In this document: piece after piece, positions 4,702 to 20,129 of the stretch | Position numbering within the stretch: position 1 is the stretch's first letter | Layout of the letters: each line of letters starts with the position of its first letter | From: a virus | Lineage: Duplodnaviria; Caudoviricetes | Strand: one strand, 5' to 3' | Virus record (IMG/VR): IMGVR_UViG_3300014031_000065 | Span: 1-25,010 of that record | DNA: 25,010 nt | The notes under the pieces: model-generated | What the model saw: only the letters and a program-made list of their open reading frames with translations | What the model was told of the DNA's origin: nothing | The model's database searches: none | Position numbers and translations under genes: made by a program

Positions 4702-4781
4702 GGGGCAGATTCGGTATCGACGGCGACGTAACGCCTCCAAGGGGCACTTGCCGGACGTGGGTTCGAATCCCACCTGCTCCA
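4702..4781 (+). ncRNA. ssrA: Miniature tmRNA: tRNA-like domain only, no tag reading frame
   Basis: 5' GGGGCAGATTCGGTATCGAC and 3' GGAC-GTGGG-TTCGAAT-CCCAC-CTGCTCC-A match the tmRNA termini. G3:U70 and A73 alanine identity; unpaired D-loop; only about 31 nt of hairpin between the halves. Confidence 0.85.
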
Positions 4782-5059
4782 TGTTGTCACTGGACTACGG
4801 CTGCCGAAGCAGGTAGAGGAAGTTCAGGCCACTCCGGTTGGGGCCAACCCTTCCAGAGATACTGAGCCGTGTTGAGGGAGCCCCGAAGGGTCTTTTGAAC
4901 CTCAGCGGGTAAGCGGAGTGTGACCTCAGAATAGATGCCCGAAGCGCAAGCCGGGGCAGTCAAGGTTGAGGGCGGCGGGAAGCTCGCAAGGGTCCGCCAC
5001 GCGCAAGCGTGAGAAAGATCGTAGTCTGCAAAACAGAATCCTGGCTACATGTGACAACA
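4782..5059 (+). ncRNA. rnpB: RNase P RNA, compact form
   Basis: P1 TGTTGTCAC/GTGACAACA; P2 GGACTACGG/TCGTAGTCT; P3; CR-I GAGGAAGTTCAGG pairs with CR-V ACAGAATCCTGGCTAC (P4, bulged U); P5 CACTCC/GGAGTG; P15 with AATAG and GGT; GNRA-capped P18; CR-IV AGAAAGAT. Confidence 0.88.
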
Positions 5060-5073: not shown

Positions 5074-5116
5074 TATCGGAACGCGCCGGTAGGGTCAAAC
5101 CGAGCCGGCGCTCCAA

Positions 5117-5187
5117 GGGGGACTCGTTCAACGGAAGGACGTGAAGCTTGCACCTTCAAGATCAGAGTTCGATTCTCTGGTTCTCCA
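5117..5187 (+). tRNA. tRNA-Ala(TGC)
   Basis: Cloverleaf, G3:U70, loop CT TGC AC. Confidence 0.92.
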
Positions 5188-5197
5188 TGCAGTACAC

Positions 5198-5271
5198 GCT
5201 GGATTAGCTCAGTTGGTTAGAGCGCCGCTCTGATAAGGCGGAGGTCCAAGGTTCAAGTCCTTGATCCAGTA
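5198..5271 (+). tRNA. tRNA-Ile(GAT)
   Basis: Canonical cloverleaf, loop CT GAT AA. Confidence 0.95.
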
Positions 5272-5274
5272 TGA

Positions 5275-5347
5275 AGTCCTTTAGCTCAGTTGGTAGAGCG
5301 CCTTTCCTACAAAAAGGAGGCCCAGGGTTCGAGCCCCTGAGGGACTA
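5275..5347 (+). tRNA. tRNA-Val(TAC), C33
   Basis: Cloverleaf, loop CC TAC AA. Confidence 0.9.
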
Positions 5348-5351
5348 CTTC

Positions 5352-5423
5352 GGGCCGCTAGCTCAGCGGGAGAGTGCCTAGTCGACAACTAGGAAGCCGC
5401 AAGTTCGATCCTTGCGCGGCCCA
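5352..5423 (+). tRNA. tRNA-Val(GAC), C33
   Basis: Cloverleaf, loop TC GAC AA. Confidence 0.9.
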
Positions 5424-5425
5424 TT

Positions 5426-5492
5426 GCCTGTGAGGTGTATGAGCACGCCAGCCCGAAAGGTTGGAGGCCGGGGTAGAGTCCCCGCACAGGTA
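5426..5492 (+). tRNA. Atypical tRNA-like element (nominal GAA anticodon)
   Basis: All four stems pair, but the D-loop is ATGA, the T-loop is TAGAGT and the anticodon loop is CCGAAAG. Confidence 0.55.
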
Positions 5493-5496
5493 ACAT

Positions 5497-5569
5497 GCAA
5501 CAGTAGCTCAGTTGGTAGAGCGTCACCTTGCCAAGGTGAATGTCGCGAGTTCGAATCTCGTCTGTTGCT
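5497..5569 (+). tRNA. tRNA-Gly(GCC)
   Basis: Canonical cloverleaf, U73. Confidence 0.95.
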
Positions 5570-5572
5570 TAC

Positions 5573-5643
5573 GCCTCCAAAGCTTTATGGATGAGCACCA
5601 GGTTCTTACCCTGGGGAACTACGTTCGATTCGTAGTGGGGGTA
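5573..5643 (+). tRNA. tRNA-Lys(CTT)
   Basis: Cloverleaf, loop TT CTT AC. Confidence 0.88.
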
Positions 5644-5647
5644 CTGC

Positions 5648-5720
5648 AGGAGCGTAGCTCAGAGGCCAGAGCAGCGGGCTTTTACCCCGATGTGCGTGAG
5701 TTCGACTCTCACCGCTCCCA
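5648..5720 (+). tRNA. tRNA-Lys(TTT)
   Basis: Cloverleaf, loop CT TTT AC; A1-C72 and G27-A43 mismatches. Confidence 0.85.
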
Positions 5721-5723
5721 TAC

Positions 5724-5796
5724 GCTGACGAAGCTCATTTGGTAGAGTTCTCCCCTGGTACGGGAGCGGTTGCGAGTTCGAATCTCGTCGTCAGCT
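5724..5796 (+). tRNA. tRNA-Thr(GGT)
   Basis: Cloverleaf, loop CT GGT AC. Confidence 0.9.
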
Positions 5797-5799
5797 TAC

Positions 5800-5871
5800 T
5801 GCGGAATGGGGTAATGGCAGCCTGCCGGCCTTTGAAGCCGGACGATCTAGGTTCGAGTCCTAGTTCCGCAG
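5800..5871 (+). tRNA. tRNA-Gln(TTG)
   Basis: U1-A72, G73, loop CT TTG AA. Confidence 0.92.
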
Positions 5872-5875
5872 CTTC

Positions 5876-5947
5876 GCACCTAAAGCATTGATGGCGATGC
5901 ACGGCTCTTGTAAAGCTGAGAACAGAGTTCGATTCTCTGTGGGTGCT
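5876..5947 (+). tRNA. tRNA-Thr(TGT)
   Basis: Cloverleaf, loop CT TGT AA. Confidence 0.9.
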
Positions 5948-5950
5948 TGT

Positions 5951-6017
5951 GCCGGATCGTCTGGGACGACCCGTCCTTCGTACGGACGGTAGCTGAGTTC
6001 AATTCTCAGATTCGGCT
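5951..6017 (+). tRNA. tRNA-Thr(CGT) with miniature D-arm
   Basis: Acceptor, anticodon and T arms intact; D-arm CGTC-TGG-GACG. Confidence 0.75.
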
Positions 6018-6020
6018 TAC

Positions 6021-6092
6021 GCGAGAGTGGTGTCAATGGCAGCACAAGACCCTTCCAAGGTTTTGGTGCCGGTTCGAGTCCGGTCTCTCGCT
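6021..6092 (+). tRNA. tRNA-Gly(TCC)
   Basis: Canonical cloverleaf, U73. Confidence 0.93.
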
Positions 6093-6164
6093 TACAGTCA
6101 GACGCAAAGGCGTCTTCGCAGGACCGGGTTGAGCGCCGGCGGCTCCGGTAATCAGTCCGGGCTA

Positions 6165-6237
6165 GGTACTGTAACTCAGCCGGTAGAGTGGCGCTCTGAA
6201 AAGGCGCAGGTCGAGGGTTCGAGCCCCTCCGGTACCA
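6165..6237 (+). tRNA. tRNA-Phe(GAA)
   Basis: Canonical cloverleaf, loop CT GAA AA. Confidence 0.95.
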
Positions 6238-6243
6238 CTGTCG

Positions 6244-6296
6244 AGAAATCCCGACTTGCACCCATTCCGGAGGCAATGTCGGGATTTTCGTCGTTC
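6244..6296. terminator. Hairpin terminator between tRNA array 1 and convergent genes
   Basis: GAGAAATCCCGAC...GTCGGGATTTTC followed by GTCGTT. Confidence 0.65.
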
Positions 6297-6478
6297 TAGG
6301 CTTGGTCGCCTTCCCAAAGCTTCGGAGCGCGCTCTGGGTTGGGCTGTAGCTGCTCCGTGAGCGCAACGAACCGCTCAACCTCCTTCTGGAAGAGCGCCTG
6401 CTGCCTCGCCCGCTCTGCTGGCGACGGCTCGTAGGTGCGTCCGGGGATCAAGTCCCACATGGGGTAGTCCTCAGGCAT
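6296..6478 (-). CDS. Hypothetical protein, 60 aa (MPEDYPMWDL...)
   Basis: ATG 6478 after GGGAGAGGG; overlaps the end of the phosphoesterase gene. Confidence 0.65.
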   Translation of the reverse strand: MPEDYPMWDLIPGRTYEPSPAERARQQALFQKEVERFVALTEQLQPNPERAPKLWEGDQA

Positions 6479-7136
6479 TTCCCTCTCCCTTCGCTTGGTG
6501 AAACTCCTTGCGCGACCGGGCATCCTCGATCTGCGCCTCCGTGGTCTGCGGGTACTCCCCCAGCAACACAGCGTCGAGTAGCAGCTTGAGGTTGACGGGC
6601 CGGTACTTGGTCTGCTCGACCGACAGGTTCACGTGCTGCGCGATGAACGGCACCCACGCCTCGCGGCTGTAGCCGTTGTTGTGGATATGCCCATGAAGGC
6701 GGAGGTCGTAGCCCTGCATCGCGCCGTCTTCCTCTGGATTCCAGGGGTAGTGGGAAAAGCTGACGACGTACGGCCGCCTGCCGTGCATCGCACCCTTGTA
6801 AAGCACCGAGAACGGGCTCACGATGTTGAAGCCAGACTGCTTGTAGAAGCTGAATCGCTGGTTGTCGTGGTTGCCCCGGATGAGTAGCTTGCGCTCACCT
6901 GTCAGTTCCTTAGCGATTAGGTGCTTGAATCGCGCGTTACTGCGGTAGCACACGTCGCCAAGGTGGATCAAGGTGGCGTCATCCGGGACCTCCTTGCGCC
7001 ACTCAGCGATCATCACCTGCTCGTGATCCTCCGGGCGGTGGCAGAAGCCAATAATGTTATCATGGCCGTAATGAGTGTCGCTGGTGACCCAAGTGTTCGC
7101 GGGGTCGATATCGTCCCGGAACTTCACGGGCTTCAT
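6471..7136 (-). CDS. Calcineurin-like metallophosphoesterase
   Basis: Motifs SDTHYGH, HLGD, RGNHD, SHYP, HGHIH. Confidence 0.92.
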   Translation of the reverse strand: MKPVKFRDDIDPANTWVTSDTHYGHDNIIGFCHRPEDHEQVMIAEWRKEVPDDATLIHLGDVCYRSNARFKHLIAKELTGERKLLIRGNHDNQRFSFYKQSGFNIVSPFSVLYKGAMHGRRPYVVSFSHYPWNPEEDGAMQGYDLRLHGHIHNNGYSREAWVPFIAQHVNLSVEQTKYRPVNLKLLLDAVLLGEYPQTTEAQIEDARSRKEFHQAKGEGNA

Positions 7137-7381
7137 CGCTCAATCACCTGCAGCTGGAAGCGGTGGAACCATTCGTTGCGCCGCTCGTCTCCGGGCGCGA
7201 TGTACGAGACCTTGAAGTAGTCCCTGCCGCGCCGGAAGTCCGCCATTTGCAGCACAACACCCTCTCGGCCGTTGTTGAACGTGTACTCGGCATGCGTGGT
7301 CCTGTCGATGTGCGGCGACGTACGGACGATTACGACCTTTGATCCGACCTGCGGATCGGGAAACATCTGTGAGTCTCGCAT
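7133..7381 (-). CDS. Hypothetical protein, 82 aa
   Basis: AGGAGG RBS; ATGA overlap with the phosphoesterase. Confidence 0.8.
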   Translation of the reverse strand: MRDSQMFPDPQVGSKVVIVRTSPHIDRTTHAEYTFNNGREGVVLQMADFRRGRDYFKVSYIAPGDERRNEWFHRFQLQVIER

Positions 7382-7494
7382 ATGACCTCCTGCGCGTATC
7401 AGTCGCGCCAGTTCGAGCGAAACAGGAGCGTTTCGCCCTAGTATCGTACCACTTTGGGCCGTTTGGCGCTTACGGGCATAGGATTGTAGGGGAA

Positions 7495-7674
7495 ATGACC
7501 AACGTAACCTGCGACGACTGCCCCTTCAAGCTAGCCTGCCCGTACAAAGCGGCCAGTAAGCGTCGCTGCCGGGTAGGGGGTGCATCCGACTGCGTACTAC
7601 AGCGTTTCGTGGGCGGCGCTCATGCTGCTTTCACTTCTGGTATAGTCCTAAAACGCGCTGTCGCGCATTGGTGA
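7495..7674 (+). CDS. Small Cys-rich protein, 59 aa (MTNVTCDDCPFKLACPY...)
   Basis: TAGGAT -10-like box and AGGGG upstream; CxxC plus three more Cys; the 3' end runs into tRNA-Tyr. Confidence 0.45.
   Translation: MTNVTCDDCPFKLACPYKAASKRRCRVGGASDCVLQRFVGGAHAAFTSGIVLKRAVAHW
7638..7646 (+). promoter_or_regulatory. Extended -10 promoter (TGGTATAGT) for tRNA array 2
   Basis: TGnTATAnT, 10 nt before tRNA-Tyr. Confidence 0.65.
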
Positions 7675-7734
7675 GCAACGGGGACTGTAAATCCCTGACC
7701 TCTGGTCTTGCAGGTTCGACTCCTGACGGCAGCA
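7657..7734 (+). tRNA. tRNA-Tyr(GTA), irregular D-arm
   Basis: Loop CT GTA AA, variable arm GACC-TCT-GGTC, A73. Confidence 0.82.
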
Positions 7735-7737
7735 TAC

Positions 7738-7822
7738 GGAAGGTGAGCCTCGCATCGGTGCGGGGACCGGATTCGAAACCCGGTGGACTACCAAGTCAGG
7801 CGTTCGAATCGTCCTCCTTCCT
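7738..7822 (+). tRNA. tRNA-Ser(CGA), 8/4 fold
   Basis: Loop TT CGA AA, long variable arm, 8-position acceptor with one U-U, 4-bp T-stem. Confidence 0.75.
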
Positions 7823-7903
7823 TACGATTCGCTTGCTAAGTCCAGCCGGGAACCTCTGCGGAGGCCGAGCGCGTCAGTCCCGTCGCGGGTAAGCGGGGCA
7901 CAA

Positions 7904-7975
7904 GTCACGTTGACCGAGCAGGCAAGGTAGAGGGCTGCAACCCCTCGCACACTGGTTCGAATCCAGTACGTGACT
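7904..7975 (+). tRNA. tRNA-Cys(GCA)
   Basis: Cloverleaf, U73, loop CT GCA AC. Confidence 0.92.
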
Positions 7976-7978
7976 TAC

Positions 7979-8063
7979 GGATGGTGAAGTCGCAAGGCGC
8001 GGCGCTCGCCTGCTAAGCGAAGCGGGCCTTCACGGGTCTGGATTTCGAGTATCCCGCCATCCG
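7979..8063 (+). tRNA. tRNA-Ser(GCT), 8/4 fold
   Basis: Acceptor GGATGGTG/CGCCATCC, T-stem GGAT/ATCC, G73. Confidence 0.82.
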
Positions 8064-8067
8064 CTTC

Positions 8068-8150
8068 GGAGAGTGAACCCGCAGGGCGTGGGGTACGACT
8101 GGAAATCGCTACGGGGTTACGGCCTTGGGCTTCGATTGCTCCGCTCTCCG
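8068..8150 (+). tRNA. tRNA-Ser(GGA), 8/4 fold
   Basis: Acceptor GGAGAGTG/CGCTCTCC, T-stem GGGC/GCTC, G73. Confidence 0.82.
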
Positions 8151-8335
8151 CTTTCGCTGCGCGGCTTCCGCTGCTCGGCAGCGAACCCCTTAGCGAACCC
8201 GTACAGGAAAAACGGCGCTACTGCGAGCACGAACACCGCGATCAAGGCCGCCAACACCCAGTAAAAGGCGATGACGGCCATGACTGCGCCCGTGGCGAGC
8301 GTAATCACGACGAGCAGCGCGAAGATGTCGCCCAT
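8117..8335 (-). CDS. Small membrane protein, 72 aa, two hydrophobic segments
   Basis: ATG 8335 coupled to the cca stop (TGATG); about 45 hydrophobic residues; tail is antisense to tRNA-Ser(GGA). Confidence 0.7.
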   Translation of the reverse strand: MGDIFALLVVITLATGAVMAVIAFYWVLAALIAVFVLAVAPFFLYGFAKGFAAEQRKPRSESGERSNRSPRP

Positions 8336-9861
8336 CAGACGCCACGCAGCGCGGCGTTGAGCTGCCACTCACGGGAGCGCTTCTGCTCAGACGGGTCAAC
8401 GGCGACCTCATCAAGCACGCGCGCGAGCACGCGGCCAACGTCGCGCCCGGTGGCGCCCAGCAACATCACGTCATGGCCGTTGATCGCCAGATCGCCGGCA
8501 GACGCCGGAACCTTAGCGAGCTTAGCCCGCTGGCGCTCGTTTTCCATCTCAGCGATGTTGGTCAGGTACTTGAGGTTGATCGAAGCACCGCCCTTGCCGC
8601 TGAGGTCGCACATCCGGTGCATGTACAGCATCGACAACAGCTCATCGCCCAGCTCAACGCGGGCGCGGCGGACCTTGACCGGGTTGACCTTCTGTAGCGG
8701 GACCATGTGGTTGAGGATCAGCGTGCCAACGGAGTCGCGCATCTTCTTGTCCACGTTCAGGCGCGCGGCAGTAGCGCCCCAGATGCGGGCGCTAACGACC
8801 TCGTGGTCCTCCGGGCGAACCCACTCCCAATCCCGCGCGTCGAGGGTTCCCCGCAGCGCAGCTGCCTCAGCCCCGGTAGGGGCGTAGTAGTGCGTCCGGC
8901 CGTCGGTGCCAGTCCACGCGGAATCCGGCTTGCCGGAGTCGTGGAACAGCAGCGCCATGCGGACTTCCAGCGGCGCGTCAACGTGCGCCGCCGTTTCCAG
9001 CGCCGTGAACGTGTGCTCGTCGGTGGTCATGTCGTGGTAGCGGCTGCCCTGCTCGAAGCCGATCATCGGAGCGAGTTCCGGCAGCAGAGTTTCCAGCACT
9101 CCGGTATCGCGAGCGATCCGCAGAGCGCGGGCAACGTCCTTGCCCATCAGCAGCTTCTTGAGTTCGTCGTAGATCGTCCCGCTCGGGTAGCCGTTCGCGC
9201 TCAGGCCGGTGACGGCGCTGGCGTGCTCGGCCATCTGGTTGAGCGTCACGCCCGCGAGGTCGTAGCCCAGCACGGACACGAACCGGAGTGCGCGGAGGGT
9301 CCGAAGCGGATCATCCCGGAAGCTGTCCGGGTGAGTCGTGCGGATGTAGCCCCGCTCAAGATCAAAGAGGCCCGCCCCGGTCGGATCGAGCACGTACGGA
9401 GGATCGCCGGCGGATTCCTCGCGGAAATCGTCGGTGATCGGCTTGTACAGCGCGTTGAATGTGAAATCGCGGCGCAGGGCGTCGTCGGCCAGCGACAGCA
9501 TCGGGTCAATCTCGATGTGGAAGTCCCGGTGGCCCGGTCCGGTGCTCACGTCGGTACGCGGGAGTACAATCTCGATCACGCCGAGGCCACGTGCGCTTAC
9601 GCGCCAGCCAGCCTGTCGGCCGTCGCGCAGCTTGAGCTTGGTCACGGCGCTGTCCGGGTACTGGTCTCGCGTCAGAAGCAGCCGCAGAGCATCGCCCAGC
9701 TCCCGGAGACCGGCCCGGCGGACCATGTAGTCAGCATCCTTGACCCGGCGACCAAGAAGCTCGTCGCGGACGCTACCGCCGACGCGGTAGACCTCGAAGC
9801 CAATGTCGCGGTGATCCAGTTGACGCATGAAATCGTCTGTGCGGGAGATGTAATCGTTCAT
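8335..9861 (-). CDS. cca: Class II tRNA nucleotidyltransferase (CCA-adding type) with HD domain
   Basis: Motifs VGGSVRD-x-DAD, RRDFTFNA, SFRDDPLRTLRALRF, HDSGKP, C-terminal LAINGHD. ATG 9861 lies 7 nt after TGCTAGGAT. Confidence 0.93.
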   Translation of the reverse strand: MNDYISRTDDFMRQLDHRDIGFEVYRVGGSVRDELLGRRVKDADYMVRRAGLRELGDALRLLLTRDQYPDSAVTKLKLRDGRQAGWRVSARGLGVIEIVLPRTDVSTGPGHRDFHIEIDPMLSLADDALRRDFTFNALYKPITDDFREESAGDPPYVLDPTGAGLFDLERGYIRTTHPDSFRDDPLRTLRALRFVSVLGYDLAGVTLNQMAEHASAVTGLSANGYPSGTIYDELKKLLMGKDVARALRIARDTGVLETLLPELAPMIGFEQGSRYHDMTTDEHTFTALETAAHVDAPLEVRMALLFHDSGKPDSAWTGTDGRTHYYAPTGAEAAALRGTLDARDWEWVRPEDHEVVSARIWGATAARLNVDKKMRDSVGTLILNHMVPLQKVNPVKVRRARVELGDELLSMLYMHRMCDLSGKGGASINLKYLTNIAEMENERQRAKLAKVPASAGDLAINGHDVMLLGATGRDVGRVLARVLDEVAVDPSEQKRSREWQLNAALRGV

Positions 9862-9932
9862 GCCAAGCATCCTAGCAGAAGTGGTACGAAGGCGCAAGGG
9901 CGGGACGACCCGCAACAGCAGGCACGGCAATG

Positions 9933-9941
9933 TGCTAAGGT
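9933..9941 (+). promoter_or_regulatory. Extended -10 promoter (TGCTAAGGT) for tRNA array 3, divergent from the cca promoter
   Basis: TGnTAnnnT, 10 nt before tRNA-Gln. Confidence 0.6.
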
Positions 9942-9951
9942 TCGTTTCTGC

Positions 9952-10023
9952 TGCGGATTGGTGTAACTGGCAACACGCTAGGTTCTGACCCTGGTATTTC
10001 GAGTTCAAATCTTGAATCCGCAT
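9952..10023 (+). tRNA. tRNA-Gln(CTG)
   Basis: U1-A72, loop TT CTG AC. Confidence 0.9.
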
Positions 10024-10026
10024 TAC

Positions 10027-10101
10027 TGATGGTGAGTCGTCCGGGCGACGACGCTCGGCTGTTACCCGAGAAAGAGCAGAGTTCGAGTCTCTGACCATCA
10101 G
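10027..10101 (+). tRNA. tRNA-Asn(GTT)
   Basis: U1-A72, G73, loop CT GTT AC. Confidence 0.85.
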
Positions 10102-10105
10102 CTTT

Positions 10106-10178
10106 CAGTGTATGGCGCAGTTGGTAGCGCGCTCCCCTCGGACGGGAGAGGTCGTAGGTTCAAGTCCTACTACACTGA
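10106..10178 (+). tRNA. tRNA-Pro(CGG), A37
   Basis: C1-G72, A73, loop CT CGG AC. Confidence 0.93.
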
Positions 10179-10183
10179 CTTTC

Positions 10184-10260
10184 GGCGCGGTCCCTGTCTA
10201 ACTGGCTAAGACCTCAGGTTTTCACCCTGAATGATGCGGGTTCGAATCCCGTCCGCGCTT
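10184..10260 (+). tRNA. tRNA-Glu(TTC), with 5-nt acceptor-to-D linker
   Basis: Loop TT TTC AC; TCCCT in place of positions 8-9. Confidence 0.85.
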
Positions 10261-10298
10261 CTACGGAGCCCAAACCATACAAGTAGCGAGGTGTTCGA

Positions 10299-10415
10299 AT
10301 GGCACGAAAGAAGTCCGCAGCGAAGAAGTCCTCACCGAAGTTTGGTTCACCCGCTTGGTTCGCCAAGTACCCTAAGGCGGGTAGGGTTGCCGGGAAGAAA
10401 AAGAAGAAGAAGTAG
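10299..10415 (+). CDS. Lys-rich basic micro-protein, 38 aa (MARKKSAAKKSSPKFGSPAWFAKYPKAGRVAGKKKKKK)
   Basis: Hand translation; GAGGTG Shine-Dalgarno; fills the gap between two tRNA-Glu genes. Confidence 0.7.
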   Translation: MARKKSAAKKSSPKFGSPAWFAKYPKAGRVAGKKKKKK

Positions 10416-10424
10416 GGTCTCTAC

Positions 10425-10499
10425 GCTCCATTCGTCTATCGGTTAGGACGCCGGGTTCTCAACCCGGAAGGACGAGTTCAATTCTCGTATGGAGTACCA
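10425..10499 (+). tRNA. tRNA-Glu(CTC), CCA encoded
   Basis: Cloverleaf, loop TT CTC AA, ends ACCA. Confidence 0.93.
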
Positions 10500-10573
10500 C
10501 AGGGTGTAGCTCAGTTTGGCAGAGTCCTCGGTTTGGAACCGAGTTGTCGTTGGTTCGAATCCAACCATCCTGA
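10500..10573 (+). tRNA. tRNA-Pro(TGG), A37
   Basis: C1-G72, loop TT TGG AA. Confidence 0.93.
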
Positions 10574-10576
10574 TAA

Positions 10577-10658
10577 GCCGACGTGGTGGAACGGTATACA
10601 CACTGGTTTTAGAAACCAGCGCCCCACGGGATTGAGGGTTCGACTCCCTCCGTCGGTA
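10577..10658 (+). tRNA. tRNA-Leu(TAG), A37
   Basis: Long variable arm, A73, loop TT TAG AA. Confidence 0.92.
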
Positions 10659-10662
10659 CTAC

Positions 10663-10735
10663 GCACCACTAGCCCAACGGCAGAGGCATCCGGTTCAAGC
10701 CCGGTAAAGTCAGAGTTCGAATCTCTGGTGGTGTA
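10663..10735 (+). tRNA. tRNA-Leu(CAA) with short variable loop
   Basis: Leu-type D-arm, A73, loop TT CAA GC, 5-nt variable region. Confidence 0.85.
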
Positions 10736-10738
10736 TAC

Positions 10739-10812
10739 ATCCTCGTAGCTCAGTTGGACAGAGCGCTACCCTGCGAAGGTAGAGGTCACTGGTTCAAGTC
10801 CAGTCGGGGATG
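10739..10812 (+). tRNA. tRNA-Arg(GCG)
   Basis: Cloverleaf with A20, loop CT GCG AA, G73. Confidence 0.92.
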
Positions 10813-10816
10813 CTTA

Positions 10817-10890
10817 GGTTATGTAGCTGAGTTGGTTACAGCACCCGGTTGTCAACCGGAAGATCGTGGGTTCGAGTCCCATCATAACCG
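10817..10890 (+). tRNA. tRNA-Asp(GTC)
   Basis: Cloverleaf, G73, loop TT GTC AA. Confidence 0.92.
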
Positions 10891-10970
10891 CTAGGATGGG
10901 CCTAGGGTGAACTGGCCCTGTAAAGGAAGTCAGGAAGTGACCCCGTGACTTCTCCTTAGCGTCCCTACGC

Positions 10971-11038
10971 CTCCTCGGTTGAGGACAACACGCGGGCCTT
11001 CGAAGCCTGCTATTTCGGTTCGACTCCGAACGAGGGGT
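10971..11038 (+). tRNA. tRNA-Arg(TCG) with miniature D-arm
   Basis: Acceptor CTCCTCG/CGAGGGG, loop CT TCG AA, D-arm GTTG-AGGA-CAAC. Confidence 0.72.
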
Positions 11039-11055
11039 TTGCTATAGTTCGTAGC

Positions 11056-11249
11056 ATGAAAACCTGCTCCAAATGCCGTGCCAGCAAGCCTGACGCTGAT
11101 TTTCATTACAAGCCGGTGAACAGGCTGGATTGCTACTGCAAGCCATAAAGAACTGCGAACTGGTTTGCGCTAACTGCCGCCGCGTCAGGACTCAGGAGCG
11201 CCTGACTGCAGCGCGTGATACAGTACAACGACCAAGTGGGGCGCGCTAA
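11056..11249 (+). pseudogene. Decayed HNH endonuclease gene (internal deletion and frameshift)
   Basis: MKTCSKC...DF...LDCYCKP-stop, then in a shifted frame IKNCELVCANCRRVRT (CANCH motif with H to R). TGCTATAGT promoter sits 6 nt before the ATG. Confidence 0.7.
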
Positions 11250-11310
11250 GCGGTCGAGCACCTAGATTGTGAATCTAGTGTTGAACAGGGTTCGAGTCCC
11301 TGGCCTCACC
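11236..11310 (+). tRNA. tRNA-His(GTG), no encoded G-1
   Basis: Acceptor GTGGGGC/GCCTCAC, C73, loop TT GTG AA; base at -1 is A. Confidence 0.82.
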
Positions 11311-11312
11311 CC

Positions 11313-11383
11313 GGAGAATAGGCGACGGTTGCCGGCGAGATTCCAAACCTCGCGTCGAGTGGGTTCGATTCCTACATTCTCCG
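11313..11383 (+). tRNA. tRNA-Trp(CCA), short D-arm
   Basis: G73, loop TT CCA AA. Confidence 0.8.
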
Positions 11384-11388
11384 CTTAC

Positions 11389-11461
11389 GCCAGCGTAGCT
11401 CAGTAGGCAGAGCAGACCCTTCATACGGGCCGTGTCGAAGGTTCGAGTCCTTCCGTTGGCA
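11389..11461 (+). tRNA. tRNA-Met(CAT) elongator (Ile2 not excluded)
   Basis: Cloverleaf, loop TT CAT AC, A73. Confidence 0.85.
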
Positions 11462-11466
11462 CTTTC

Positions 11467-17516: not shown

Positions 17517-20129
17517 TTGTCTCATGCACCCTTCGATGCGCCCTTCGCGCACGGAATCTACAAGCAGAAGTACGCCCAGCAGGGTGAAGAGTGGCAGGAC
17601 ACCGCGTTCCGTGTGGTTGAGCACGTCATGGGGGCCGTTGACATGGCCGACACCGTTGAGGCCGGGATTCTGGCGTCCCTGATCGACGCCCGCAAGTTCA
17701 TCCCCGGCGGACGGTACCTCTACGCTTCGGGCCGCGACCTGCATCAGGTCCAGAACTGCCTGCTGCTGCGCGCGGAGGACACGCGCGAGGGATGGTCGCA
17801 GCTCGTCAGCGATTCGACGATGGCGCTGATGACCGGCGCAGGGATCGGGGTCTGGTATGGCGACGTTCGCTGCTCGGGCTCCGTCATCACGCGGACCGGA
17901 GGAACGGCCAGCGGCCCGATCAGCCTGATGAAGATGGTCAACGAGGTTGGCCGCAACGTCATGCAAGGCGGCGCGCGACGCTCCGCTATCTGGGCGGGCC
18001 TCCCTTGGTGGCATCCCGACGTGTTCGAGTTCATTCGGTCGAAGGACTGGTCCCAGGACGTGCGGGCGCTCAAGGAAAAAGACTTCACCTTCCCGGCCGA
18101 CCTCGACATGACGAACATCAGCGTCACGCTCGACAAGGACTTCTTCGACGCGTACAACGATGAGACCTCGTTCGTCAGCGTGCGGAGCACGCTCGATGCG
18201 CCAGATGGCCGCTCGTGGAATGAATGGGCGCGCGAGGTCTACGAGCTAGTCGTGGACAAGATGCTCACGACGGCCGAGCCGGGCTTCTCGGTGGACTACG
18301 ACAACGCGTCCGAGAACCTCAGGAACGCGCCAGTTACGGGCGAAACTCAGGTGCTCACAGATCGCGGATATCGCGCCGTACGCAGCATTGTGGGTAAGCC
18401 AACATCTGTCTGGACTGGAAAGCAGTGGGCCTCCGGCGTAGTGTTCGAGCAAACTAAGGCCGACGCCGAGGTGGTCCGGGTTGAGATTAGCGGGGGCAGG
18501 TTTGTGCGCTGTGATCCGGAACACGAGTTCTTGGTGGAGAGGCGCGTCGTCGGGCAGCCAACAAGTATTGGTCGTGTAGGGGCCGGTGCTCTCGTGGTCG
18601 GCGATACGCTGCATGTGGCGCTGCCCGTGGGTGAGGCGGCGACGGACCAGGACGACTATGAGCTAGGCTATATCTACGGCGACGGATCGTTTGCTAAGGC
18701 GGGAGGTGCTGAGGTTACGTTCTGCACCGACGAATCGAAAGCGTGCGCGGCCTCTTTTGCGGGACACGCCAGCATGAATATGCACGACTCTCGCGGGCAT
18801 ATCCGCGCGTACTACAGTGTCAATCGTCGGTTTGCCGGGCGCAGCAAGGACAAGTTTCCCGATGATGTTGGGTGCCTAAACTCGTTTCTAGCCGGGCTAT
18901 TTGACGCCGATGGCAACTACGAGCTAATCCAGCGGCGGGTCAGGCTATCGTCTAAGCACCGCAGCTTCTTGGCGGGCGCGGCTCGCGCGCTAGAGTCGCT
19001 TGGCATTCTCGCCGGAGTGTCAAAGGCGGGAACGTCAACGTACGGTAAGGCGCAGGGCTGGCAGCTTGTTGTCAACCGCGACTTCAATGATGAGTTTGCG
19101 CGTTTGATTCCCTGCCTGCGTTTGCGGGTTCCTGCCCGCTCCGGGAAGGGATACAGGCCAGCGGCGTTGAAGGTGCTCGCTGTGGCGCCTGATGGTCGCG
19201 AAGACGTTTTCTGCGCTGACGTGGGGGTACCCGAGCACTCATTCGTTGCTGAGGGGGTTGTCCTCTCGAACTGCACAGAAATCACGTCGGAGGACGACTC
19301 CGATGTGTGTAACCTCGGCTCGCTCAACATGGCGGCGTTCACTTCGCTCGAAGAGTTCCGGCAGGCCGTTGACCTTGCCACGCTGTTCCTAGTTGCCGGC
19401 ACGGTCTACTCCGACCTGCCATACGACAAGGTTCACGCGACCCGCGAGAAGAACCGGAGGCTCGGCCTCGGGATCATGGGCGTTCACGAGTGGCTACTCA
19501 AGCGCGGCAAGAAGTACGGCCCGGACGACGAGCTGGCGAAGTGGCTTGAGGTCTACGCCACCTCTACCGAGTATGCGCACAAGTGGGCCGACGCCGTCGG
19601 TGTGAGCCGCCCAATCAAGACGCGGGCGATCGCCCCCAACGGCACTATCGGAATCATCGCGGAAACCACCACTTCGGCCGAGCCGATCTTCGCGTCCGCC
19701 TTCAAGCGCCGCGTACGCAACGCTTCGGCGCAGGGTGACACGGTGCAGTACGAGTACGTCGTGGACCCCACAGCGGCCCGCCTCGTGGCTGACGGTGTTG
19801 ACCCCGCGATCATCGAGGACGCGTATTCGCTCTCCTACGACGTGGAGCGTCGCGTGGCGTTCCAGCATTGGCTACAGCAGTACGTGGATCACGGCATCTC
19901 GTCCACCGTCAACCTGCCGAGGGTCATCGACGACCCGGCCGAGCAGCGCGAGTTCGGGGAGATGTTGATGAAGTACCTTCCGGGACTACGCGGAATCACG
20001 GCGTACCCGGACGGATCACGGGGCGGACAGCCCCTAACAGCGGTCCCGATCGAGTTCGCGCTCGACAAGACCGGAGTGCGCTTCGAAGAGGCCGAGGACC
20101 GCTGCGTGGGCGGTCTCTGCGGCGTATAA
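17517..20129 (+). CDS. nrdJ: Class II (adenosylcobalamin-dependent) ribonucleotide reductase with intein
   Basis: Motifs FIPGGRYL, NC, GGARRSA, EPG, spliced NACTE, VCNLGS, RRLGLG, IAPNGT, VDHGISST, GITAYPDGSR, C-terminal CxxxxC; AGGAGG RBS. Confidence 0.92.
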   Translation: MSHAPFDAPFAHGIYKQKYAQQGEEWQDTAFRVVEHVMGAVDMADTVEAGILASLIDARKFIPGGRYLYASGRDLHQVQNCLLLRAEDTREGWSQLVSDSTMALMTGAGIGVWYGDVRCSGSVITRTGGTASGPISLMKMVNEVGRNVMQGGARRSAIWAGLPWWHPDVFEFIRSKDWSQDVRALKEKDFTFPADLDMTNISVTLDKDFFDAYNDETSFVSVRSTLDAPDGRSWNEWAREVYELVVDKMLTTAEPGFSVDYDNASENLRNAPVTGETQVLTDRGYRAVRSIVGKPTSVWTGKQWASGVVFEQTKADAEVVRVEISGGRFVRCDPEHEFLVERRVVGQPTSIGRVGAGALVVGDTLHVALPVGEAATDQDDYELGYIYGDGSFAKAGGAEVTFCTDESKACAASFAGHASMNMHDSRGHIRAYYSVNRRFAGRSKDKFPDDVGCLNSFLAGLFDADGNYELIQRRVRLSSKHRSFLAGAARALESLGILAGVSKAGTSTYGKAQGWQLVVNRDFNDEFARLIPCLRLRVPARSGKGYRPAALKVLAVAPDGREDVFCADVGVPEHSFVAEGVVLSNCTEITSEDDSDVCNLGSLNMAAFTSLEEFRQAVDLATLFLVAGTVYSDLPYDKVHATREKNRRLGLGIMGVHEWLLKRGKKYGPDDELAKWLEVYATSTEYAHKWADAVGVSRPIKTRAIAPNGTIGIIAETTTSAEPIFASAFKRRVRNASAQGDTVQYEYVVDPTAARLVADGVDPAIIEDAYSLSYDVERRVAFQHWLQQYVDHGISSTVNLPRVIDDPAEQREFGEMLMKYLPGLRGITAYPDGSRGGQPLTAVPIEFALDKTGVRFEEAEDRCVGGLCGV
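18330..19271 (+). mobile_element. 314-aa intein with LAGLIDADG homing endonuclease, Pro at position 1
   Basis: PVTGETQVLT...VVLSN inserted between LRNA and CTEI; blocks LGYIYGDGS and FLAGLFDADG; block F VFC; codon usage differs from the exteins. Confidence 0.92.

Follow-up and report, generated by a model that had tools for sequence, protein, structure and literature searches.

The window analysed here is a stretch of 25,010 nt whose source record is a linear virus contig of 25 kb with a completeness estimate of 21%. The contig belongs to a tailed phage (HK97-type portal, prohead protease and capsid genes), and the other genes in the window include those for a ribonucleotide reductase and a tRNA nucleotidyltransferase. 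RNase P RNA matures the 5′ ends of tRNAs and is regarded as a cellular gene; the original prediction placed a divergent, phage-encoded RNase P RNA at the start of the tRNA array, where the following features are found.

4702–4781, plus strand: tmRNA cut to its tRNA-like domain (mini-tmRNA; RF00023, 61.5 bits; 21 nt replace 312)
4782–5059, plus strand: candidate RNase P RNA homologue, 278 nt, read out helix by helix, P1 formed by both ends
5117–11462, plus strand: array of 27 tRNA genes (ARAGORN), arranged in blocks, many with 3-nt spacers
8335–9861, minus strand: tRNA nucleotidyltransferase of the CCA-adding-enzyme family (phrog_2244, E 8e-49; PF01743), start codon uncertain

The mini-tmRNA directly abuts the RNase P RNA with zero spacer, a junction that is repeated in the sister phage G059; in the sister G066, the mini-tmRNA lies about 160 nt upstream of the RNase P RNA. 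The first tRNA begins 57 nt 3′ of the RNase P RNA on the same strand. The CCA end is encoded in one of the 27 tRNAs, and the first base pair is G1-C72 in 12 of them and something else in the remaining 15 (G.U, A-U, U-A, C-G and one A.C mismatch). The opposite strand carries the CCA enzyme and two phosphoesterase genes, between or beside the tRNA blocks. A stable hairpin (5077–5115, plus strand, z −3.3) has a UCCA end one base before tRNA-Ala, and similar hairpins precede tRNA-Ala in the sisters G066 and G062. Between tRNA-Val and tRNA-Gly, a cloverleaf (5426–5493, plus strand, z −3.8) that was missed by both ARAGORN and Rfam is probably a degenerate tRNA. The ribonucleotide reductase (17517–20129, plus strand) has an insertion of about 300 aa, seen as a split profile match, which resembles an intein. 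The helices and conserved regions of the RNase P RNA, all on the plus strand, were assigned as follows.

4782–4790/5051–5059: P1, 9 bp, with 2 bp more beyond a bulge
4793–4799/5020–5026: P2, 7 bp
4802–4805/4812–4815: P3
4816–4829: CR-I and 5′ strand of P4 with bulged U4823, pairing with CR-V
4830–4835/4915–4920: P5, 6/6 Watson-Crick pairs, a helix also found in relatives
4836–4854: P5.1-position hairpin, capped by a GCCAA loop and containing two U.U mismatches, in the slot usually occupied by the 5′ strand of P6
4867–4908: probable remnant of the specificity domain, a single stem whose asymmetric internal loop is conserved and whose apical hairpin (4880–4891) varies
4921–4923: J5/15, UGA, in which G4922 is the equivalent of E. 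coli A248
4924–4928/4967–4971: P15, with the L15 GGU at 4964–4966
4936–4940/4954–4958: P16
within 4924–4971: P17, short, GCAA cap, with a receptor-like internal loop at about 4939–4955
4974–4978/4994–4998: extra helix at the P15.1 position
5000–5002/5007–5009: P18, GCAA loop
5012–5049: CR-IV, 3′ strand of P2, 6-nt J2/4, and CR-V with the 3′ strand of P4

The predicted catalytic-domain signature was borne out, with P1 to P5, P15 and the GGU of L15, P18 with its GCAA loop, and CR-I, CR-IV and CR-V all present with the standard pairs. The proposed pairing of CR-I with CR-V forms a P4 of seven pairs (4821–4828 with 5040–5046) around the bulged U4823, and both flanks of this helix are mismatched (C4829.U5039 and A4820.A5047). 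Because CR-IV begins at 5012 and CR-V at 5033, J2/4 is 6 nt long and P19 is absent, as had been claimed; the 7-bp P2 adjoins CR-IV in 9/9 RNAs of the subtype. The extra helix that had been noted between P15 and P18 was also confirmed and occupies the P15.1 position of type B RNAs. As for the specificity domain, described earlier as about 75 nt, its reduction holds: that figure probably includes the hairpin at the P5.1 position, and the remnant is probably about 42 nt once this hairpin is set apart. No P6 pairing of at least 5 bp was found in the window RNA, the best candidate being 4 bp and overlapping other helices, and no motif pair like CR-II/CR-III, the tRNA-elbow-binding loops, is conserved across the lineage, in which an asymmetric loop remains. 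The three-anchor pattern occurred once in the window and in 0/100 shuffles, and the locus had a folding z of −2.6, with one of 200 shuffles equally stable. A protein-coding reading (a 58-aa ORF at 4787–4963 on the minus strand) was rejected, its product having no Pfam match.

The identification rests on comparative evidence because Rfam gives no RNase P match in the window, an outcome that the original prediction had named as speaking against it. Matches to RNase P were absent from an all-family scan of the window at E ≤ 1, from a scan of a 476-nt excerpt around the locus at E ≤ 10, RF00011 included, and from single runs of RF00010 and RF00373 on the window RNA, both at E ≤ 10. The gathering cut-off of RF00010 is 100 bits; the window RNA misses it, and its relatives score 19–95 bits, all below (56.9 for G059, 54.0 for G056, 38.6 for G049, 28.4 for G043 and 19.1 for G066). 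Neither the RNA of a Solirubrobacter provirus nor that of G062 gave an Rfam match at E ≤ 0.5, and among the first 20 viral loci nine matched RNase P models at 40–95 bits, none above the cut-off. A family-wide sequence profile (106 cores, anchors removed) misses the window as well as loci L024, L136 and L022, and a covariance model that covered the 3′ half of the family RNA gave its best window match at exactly 4919–5030, a weak one (13.9 bits, E 0.19). Anchor-free profiles of relatives, which were partly picked for their likeness to the window RNA, do match: that of L024 and L136 finds the window at E 1.4e-11, that of five sisters at E 2.4e-8, and that of seven relatives finds the window RNA at E 1e-13. 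Judged by these profiles, the window RNA is a divergent subtype within a viral family. Blastn searches of the GenBank phages with the RNAs of the window, L024, L136 and L012 returned nothing meaningful, and the L104 RNA, alone among the queries tried, found family members. When relatives were sought via the CCA enzyme, none of 16 candidates was confirmed; a metagenome scan with a subtype pattern gave 23 matches, none with CR-V and all judged to be due to chance; and the sole find of a second subtype pattern was the Solirubrobacter provirus.

The window RNA is not a one-off but belongs to a broad family of viral RNAs. A pattern running from CR-I to CR-V in which the interior of P4 was unconstrained was searched in IMG/VR for four length classes and yielded 56, 68, 22 and 25 loci, 171 viral loci in total. 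The 146 loci from the first three scans comprise 112 unique cores, and in 111 of these all three free P4 positions are paired, compared with about 5% expected by chance; the pairs are fully Watson-Crick in 105 cores and come in 24 different combinations. In the fourth scan, 22 of the 24 unique cores had all three pairs. Two of the 112 cores were rejected as chance matches (L091, and L061/L092 with a lucky pairing and no P15) and left out of later counts. P15, P16, P15.1 and P18 also covary, with 80.6% of cells paired versus 55.4% after shuffling and at most 48.3% after sliding, in a set of 41 members that were chosen for two helices after P15 and whose relatedness inflates the shuffle test. 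Viral homologues with a conserved, covarying P4 were collected, as the original prediction had called for. A tRNA lies within about 1.7 kb of 89 of the 112 cores, and the tRNAs near the cores of the first 146 loci are on the RNA's own strand in 591 cases out of 591. P6 pairing of at least 5 bp is present in 96 of 113 family cores, a typical member having the 5′ strand of P6 after P5 and then one stem with a conserved asymmetric loop. Among 109 parsed cores, J5/15 is CAA in 84 and UAA in 17 (four cores were unparsed and a few misparsed). One unannotated member lies in the tRNA cluster of DLP6, a cultured Stenotrophomonas phage (RF00010, 54.7 bits), and another unannotated member is found in the record of an uncultured 735-kb phage. 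The DLP6 RNA (L353:2304-2552; KU682439.2, about 105,774–106,022) contains P6 and lies just before tRNA-Arg. Six viral members (L128, L132, L135, L427, L435 and L442) keep CR-II/CR-III motifs that resemble those of archaeal RNAs, so the family ranges from a full to a minimal specificity domain. Two further members (L172 and L184) lie inside the tRNA arrays of one bacterial and one archaeal metagenome bin and are probably phage contigs within these bins.

A search with the window capsid retrieved 12 records with 51–80% identity, five of which hold tRNAs. In the three that cover the array head (G059, G062 and G066), the RNA was found upstream of tRNA-Ala in every case; no RNA was found in the fetched parts of G065 and G067, which exclude the array head. 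Three more records (G056, G043 and G050), found by the RNA pattern, have capsids with 63–65% identity, and altogether six capsid-related sister records carry an RNase P RNA; G056 also has a gene and tRNA order closely similar to that of the window. The CR-I of the window RNA has one A fewer, as in archaeal type M, and this part of the original prediction stands, one A-U pair having been lost. An archaeal origin is not supported by it: in G059, CR-I is longer by one A and CR-V by one U, both being of the ordinary bacterial form, so that both forms of CR-I occur in one lineage. What makes P4 type-M-like is the loss of a single A-U pair, which toggles within a single phage lineage. In GTDB, 37 of the 42 matches to the pattern came from archaeal records. 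G062 has two compensatory swaps in P4, G-C to C-G and U-G to U-A. Its RNA (L445:15368-15745, minus strand) has these swaps at normally invariant P4 pairs, together with a long insertion between P2 and CR-I.

The missing Rfam match, the missing P6, and the mismatches in the 4836–4854 hairpin and at the end of P4 are what one would expect if an rnpB captured from a host were decaying here, or if the assembly were chimeric. We regard such an origin as highly improbable, since it is largely refuted by the conservation of the RNA, with compensatory changes, in the six sister records. Moreover, in sequencing run X1, possibly the source data, one contig spans 3800–5231 at even depth, so the concern about a host chimera that came with the original prediction was allayed by this contig as well as by the sister phages. 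A second sample holds 4777–5051 with six substitutions and one deletion, all within 4882–4898 in the apical hairpin; in 200,000 random placements of seven changes over 274 nt, none was as clustered, and a single replacement event could explain these changes. The phage genes on the contig, the sister phages and the position in the array support the identification of the RNA, by comparison of sequences, as a divergent and compact homologue of RNase P RNA that the phage encodes in front of its tRNA genes.

The closest RNA (71% identity over 162 nt) comes from Ca. Solirubrobacter pratensis, where it is part of a provirus of 152 kb that has 32 tRNAs, a tmRNA and a CCA enzyme. This bacterium has its own ordinary rnpB (246.6 bits) on a contig other than that of the provirus, and rnpA is also present; the RNA of the provirus is therefore an extra copy. 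There is no DNA match between the window RNA and the Solirubrobacter form of rnpB, which is a further argument against a relic or chimera. The window capsid had no match in the provirus, so the closest RNA does not come from a sister phage, and none was found at E ≤ 1e-60 in 401 genomes of the class of Solirubrobacter, so a host of that class is not established for the window phage. RnpA (PF00825) was found in none of 50 carrier records, which were chosen mostly for length (23 are at least 90% complete), in none of five sister records and not in the window, where its absence had already been noted. Because no RnpA gene was found, host RnpA is probably borrowed.

The hairpin at the P5.1 position is also found in G056, G066, G043, the provirus and G049. 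The window hairpin (4836–4854) is predicted to dock on the internal loop of P16/P17, a contact that likely replaces the P6 brace. The 11-nt receptor of the GAAA tetraloop has the motif CCUAAG/UAUGG. This pattern was found in two of 111 cores, exactly in L136 and as a variant in L022, in both cases within P16/17, and both RNAs have a GAAA-capped hairpin directly 3′ of P5; the contact between the GAAA loop and the 11-nt receptor is described in passages of PMC3494683. GCNAA loops and variant internal loops occur at the corresponding sites in the window, G066, G043 and the provirus. In the window itself the loop is GCCAA and the internal loop is a variant, and the predicted contact is placed by position only. 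In G059, the loop of the hairpin is complementary to the P16/17 loop over six bases.

We consider it probable that the RNA, together with host RnpA, is active as RNase P and that its substrates are the phage's own packed, CCA-less pre-tRNAs, cut at their 5′ ends. The RNA would be transcribed together with the mini-tmRNA and the tRNA array, and its 5′ end would be freed when the abutting mini-tmRNA is trimmed after its discriminator at the zero-base junction. It may then assemble with the borrowed RnpA, the contact of the 4836–4854 hairpin with P16/17 standing in for the P6 brace and P4 binding the Mg2+ needed for catalysis in the manner of the cellular enzyme. The phage CCA enzyme would add CCA, which could pair with the GGU of L15, and the pre-tRNAs would be cut at their 5′ ends after this addition. 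The catalytic half is wholly kept and most of the half that reads the tRNA elbow is lost, and isolated C-domains, according to passages of PMC4919922, cleave pre-tRNA, albeit more slowly, and RnpA proteins are interchangeable. In T4, a 3-nt-spaced CCA-less dimer is processed better once CCA is present, as a part of PMC11143913 reports. Counting against activity are the absence of P6 and of CR-II/CR-III and the C.U mismatch that ends P4. A need for a phage RNA is not obvious, given that Solirubrobacter carries both rnpB and rnpA itself, and a special need arising from CCA-less substrates is weakened by the finding that the host tRNAs are CCA-less as well (CCA encoded in 0/44).

A different use of an active ribozyme would be a shifted specificity, with the RNA, which has G248 and no elbow reader, serving not general tRNA maturation but substrates that the host enzyme handles poorly, such as 3-nt-spaced multimers, odd first base pairs or hairpin-CCA ends, whether of phage or host. 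The equivalent of A248 is G in 7/7 members of the lineage and A in the provirus and G049, and passages of PMC10465520 describe G248 in the E. coli RNA as tolerated and as the next most efficient base after A248, which favours an active ribozyme in general, with cleavage of A-1 and C-1 mini-substrates increased and that of U-1 decreased 10- to 20-fold. Besides the 12 G1-C72 pairs among the 27 window tRNAs, the base at −1 is C in 17, A in seven and U in three; U is found at −1 in 30 of 200 lineage tRNAs versus 409 of 569 tRNAs near other family members. Co-adaptation of G248 with position −1 was nevertheless rejected, since the Solirubrobacter host, with A248 (J5/15 CAA), is also poor in U at −1 (U in 5/44 and C in 25/44 tRNAs), which removes the argument from position −1; the U-poor positions look like host background. 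The A248 provirus likewise has C at −1 in 17 of 30 tRNAs, the seven G248 records are a single event because all belong to one lineage, and the relevant passages of PMC10465520 give no conclusive evidence of 248/−1 pairing. A shifted specificity is, on balance, unlikely.

The RNA could also be a catalytically weak decoy that titrates host RnpA, or pre-tRNAs, and so slows the maturation of host tRNAs. The RnpA-binding region of RNase P RNA consists of P2–P4 and CR-IV, and this is the best-kept part of the window RNA, whose specificity domain is reduced. Decoys exist at the locus, since the neighbouring mini-tmRNA is of a form that is reported to be inhibitory: a tmRNA with only the tRNA-like domain is known from phage DS6A and reported, in passages of PMC4131195 and PMC11915505, to inhibit its host counterpart. 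The adjacent mini-tmRNA may titrate SmpB, which would be a parallel case, and the camelpox RNase P-like RNA was inactive in vitro according to a part of PMC3001073. However, the substrate-contacting L15 GGU, P15 and J5/15 are kept with covariation, and the phage has at least 27 tRNAs of its own that need 5′ maturation. Moreover, mini-tmRNAs are common in viruses: a scan for their pattern returned 120 loci of viral origin (about 350 are estimated), 109 of them with tmRNA-like ends, and no RNase P-like pattern was found within 1.5 kb in any of the 120; the two RNAs are thus not a fixed module. We therefore consider a decoy unlikely and retain an active RNase P that matures the phage tRNAs as the preferred reading. 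A bolder version of it, which we regard as doubtful and offer as speculation, is that the soil-type phage RNase P is a new architectural type, in which an interchangeable clamp, either loop-receptor or kissing-loop, braces the catalytic domain, with no elbow reader and with G248. During infection it would take over from the host enzyme and mature phage tRNA multimers selectively, which would make it the first virus-encoded trans-acting ribozyme for tRNA processing.

Literature searches for a phage or viral RNase P RNA found no describing paper (supplements lay outside their scope and few subscription journals were covered), in agreement with the original prediction, which knew of no well-described phage example. 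There is no mention of RNase P in the main text of the huge-phage paper (PMC7162821) or the full text of the DLP6 paper (PMC5349666), and the Bcheck paper (PMC2996960) has no occurrence of phage, viral or virus. RNase P RNA counts as strictly cellular and serves as a marker of completeness for cell genomes (PMC8172020); passages of this paper describe diverged RNase P RNAs in CPR bacteria and, for megaphages, tRNA and tmRNA only, and in PMC10879173 and PMC12636597 the enzyme RNase P belongs to the host. A phage family that is widespread and scores below the Rfam cut-off would mean that tRNA arrays can carry their own, unannotated ribozyme for 5′ maturation. Its natural variants, in which the specificity domain is lost, the P6 brace swapped or position 248 changed, are tests of which parts RNase P needs. 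Additionally, the 3-nt-spaced CCA-less arrays bear on RNase P and multimeric precursors, the handling of which is called an open question in a part of a 2024 review (PMC11143913).

Compared with known systems, the window RNA shares with type A (rnpB or M1 RNA, RF00010) P1–P5, a P4 with a bulged U, P15 and the L15 GGU, P16/P17, P18 and CR-I, CR-IV and CR-V. It differs in being viral, without rnpA, and in its 278-nt length, with a P4 that is one A-U pair shorter, no P6 and no recognisable CR-II/CR-III, P13/14 or P19; it adds helices at the P5.1 and P15.1 positions and has G for A248. In type B RNAs (Bacillus), from which the names P5.1 and P15.1 come and in which P16/P17 are absent, hairpins at these positions likewise stand in place of the P6 pseudoknot. 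Their L5.1–L15.1 contact is described in a part of PMC5066622; the window RNA, by contrast, keeps P16/P17, which would be the partner of its P5.1 loop instead of L15.1, and has mostly lost the specificity domain. The P4 register is that of archaeal type M (Methanococci, Archaeoglobus), P6 being absent in both, and CR-I is as in DPANN and Thermoplasmata RNAs. According to passages of PMC4919922, P16 and the L15 loop are missing from type M, and P18 does not occur in archaeal RNAs. The window RNA, in contrast, has all three and no match to RF00373, and CR-II/CR-III, present in archaeal RNAs, are absent from it. The minimal RNase P RNA of Pyrobaculum, also named type T, likewise consists of a catalytic domain with almost no specificity domain, but it is cellular and archaeal and works with archaeal proteins, and its model gave no Rfam match here. 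These RNAs are called type P in passages of PMC4919922, which also describe them as without the CR-II/CR-III domain. Among viruses, the camelpox RNase P-like RNA has some structural similarity and is inactive in vitro, as reported in part of PMC3001073, whereas the window RNA keeps all consensus regions of the catalytic domain with covariation and sits in tRNA arrays. The theta ribozymes of gut phages are likewise phage ribozymes tied to tRNA maturation; passages of PMC10879173 describe them as small, self-cleaving and HDV-like, and propose that they trim 3′ trailers in cis, whereas the window RNA is a candidate homologue of the enzyme that acts in trans on 5′ ends.
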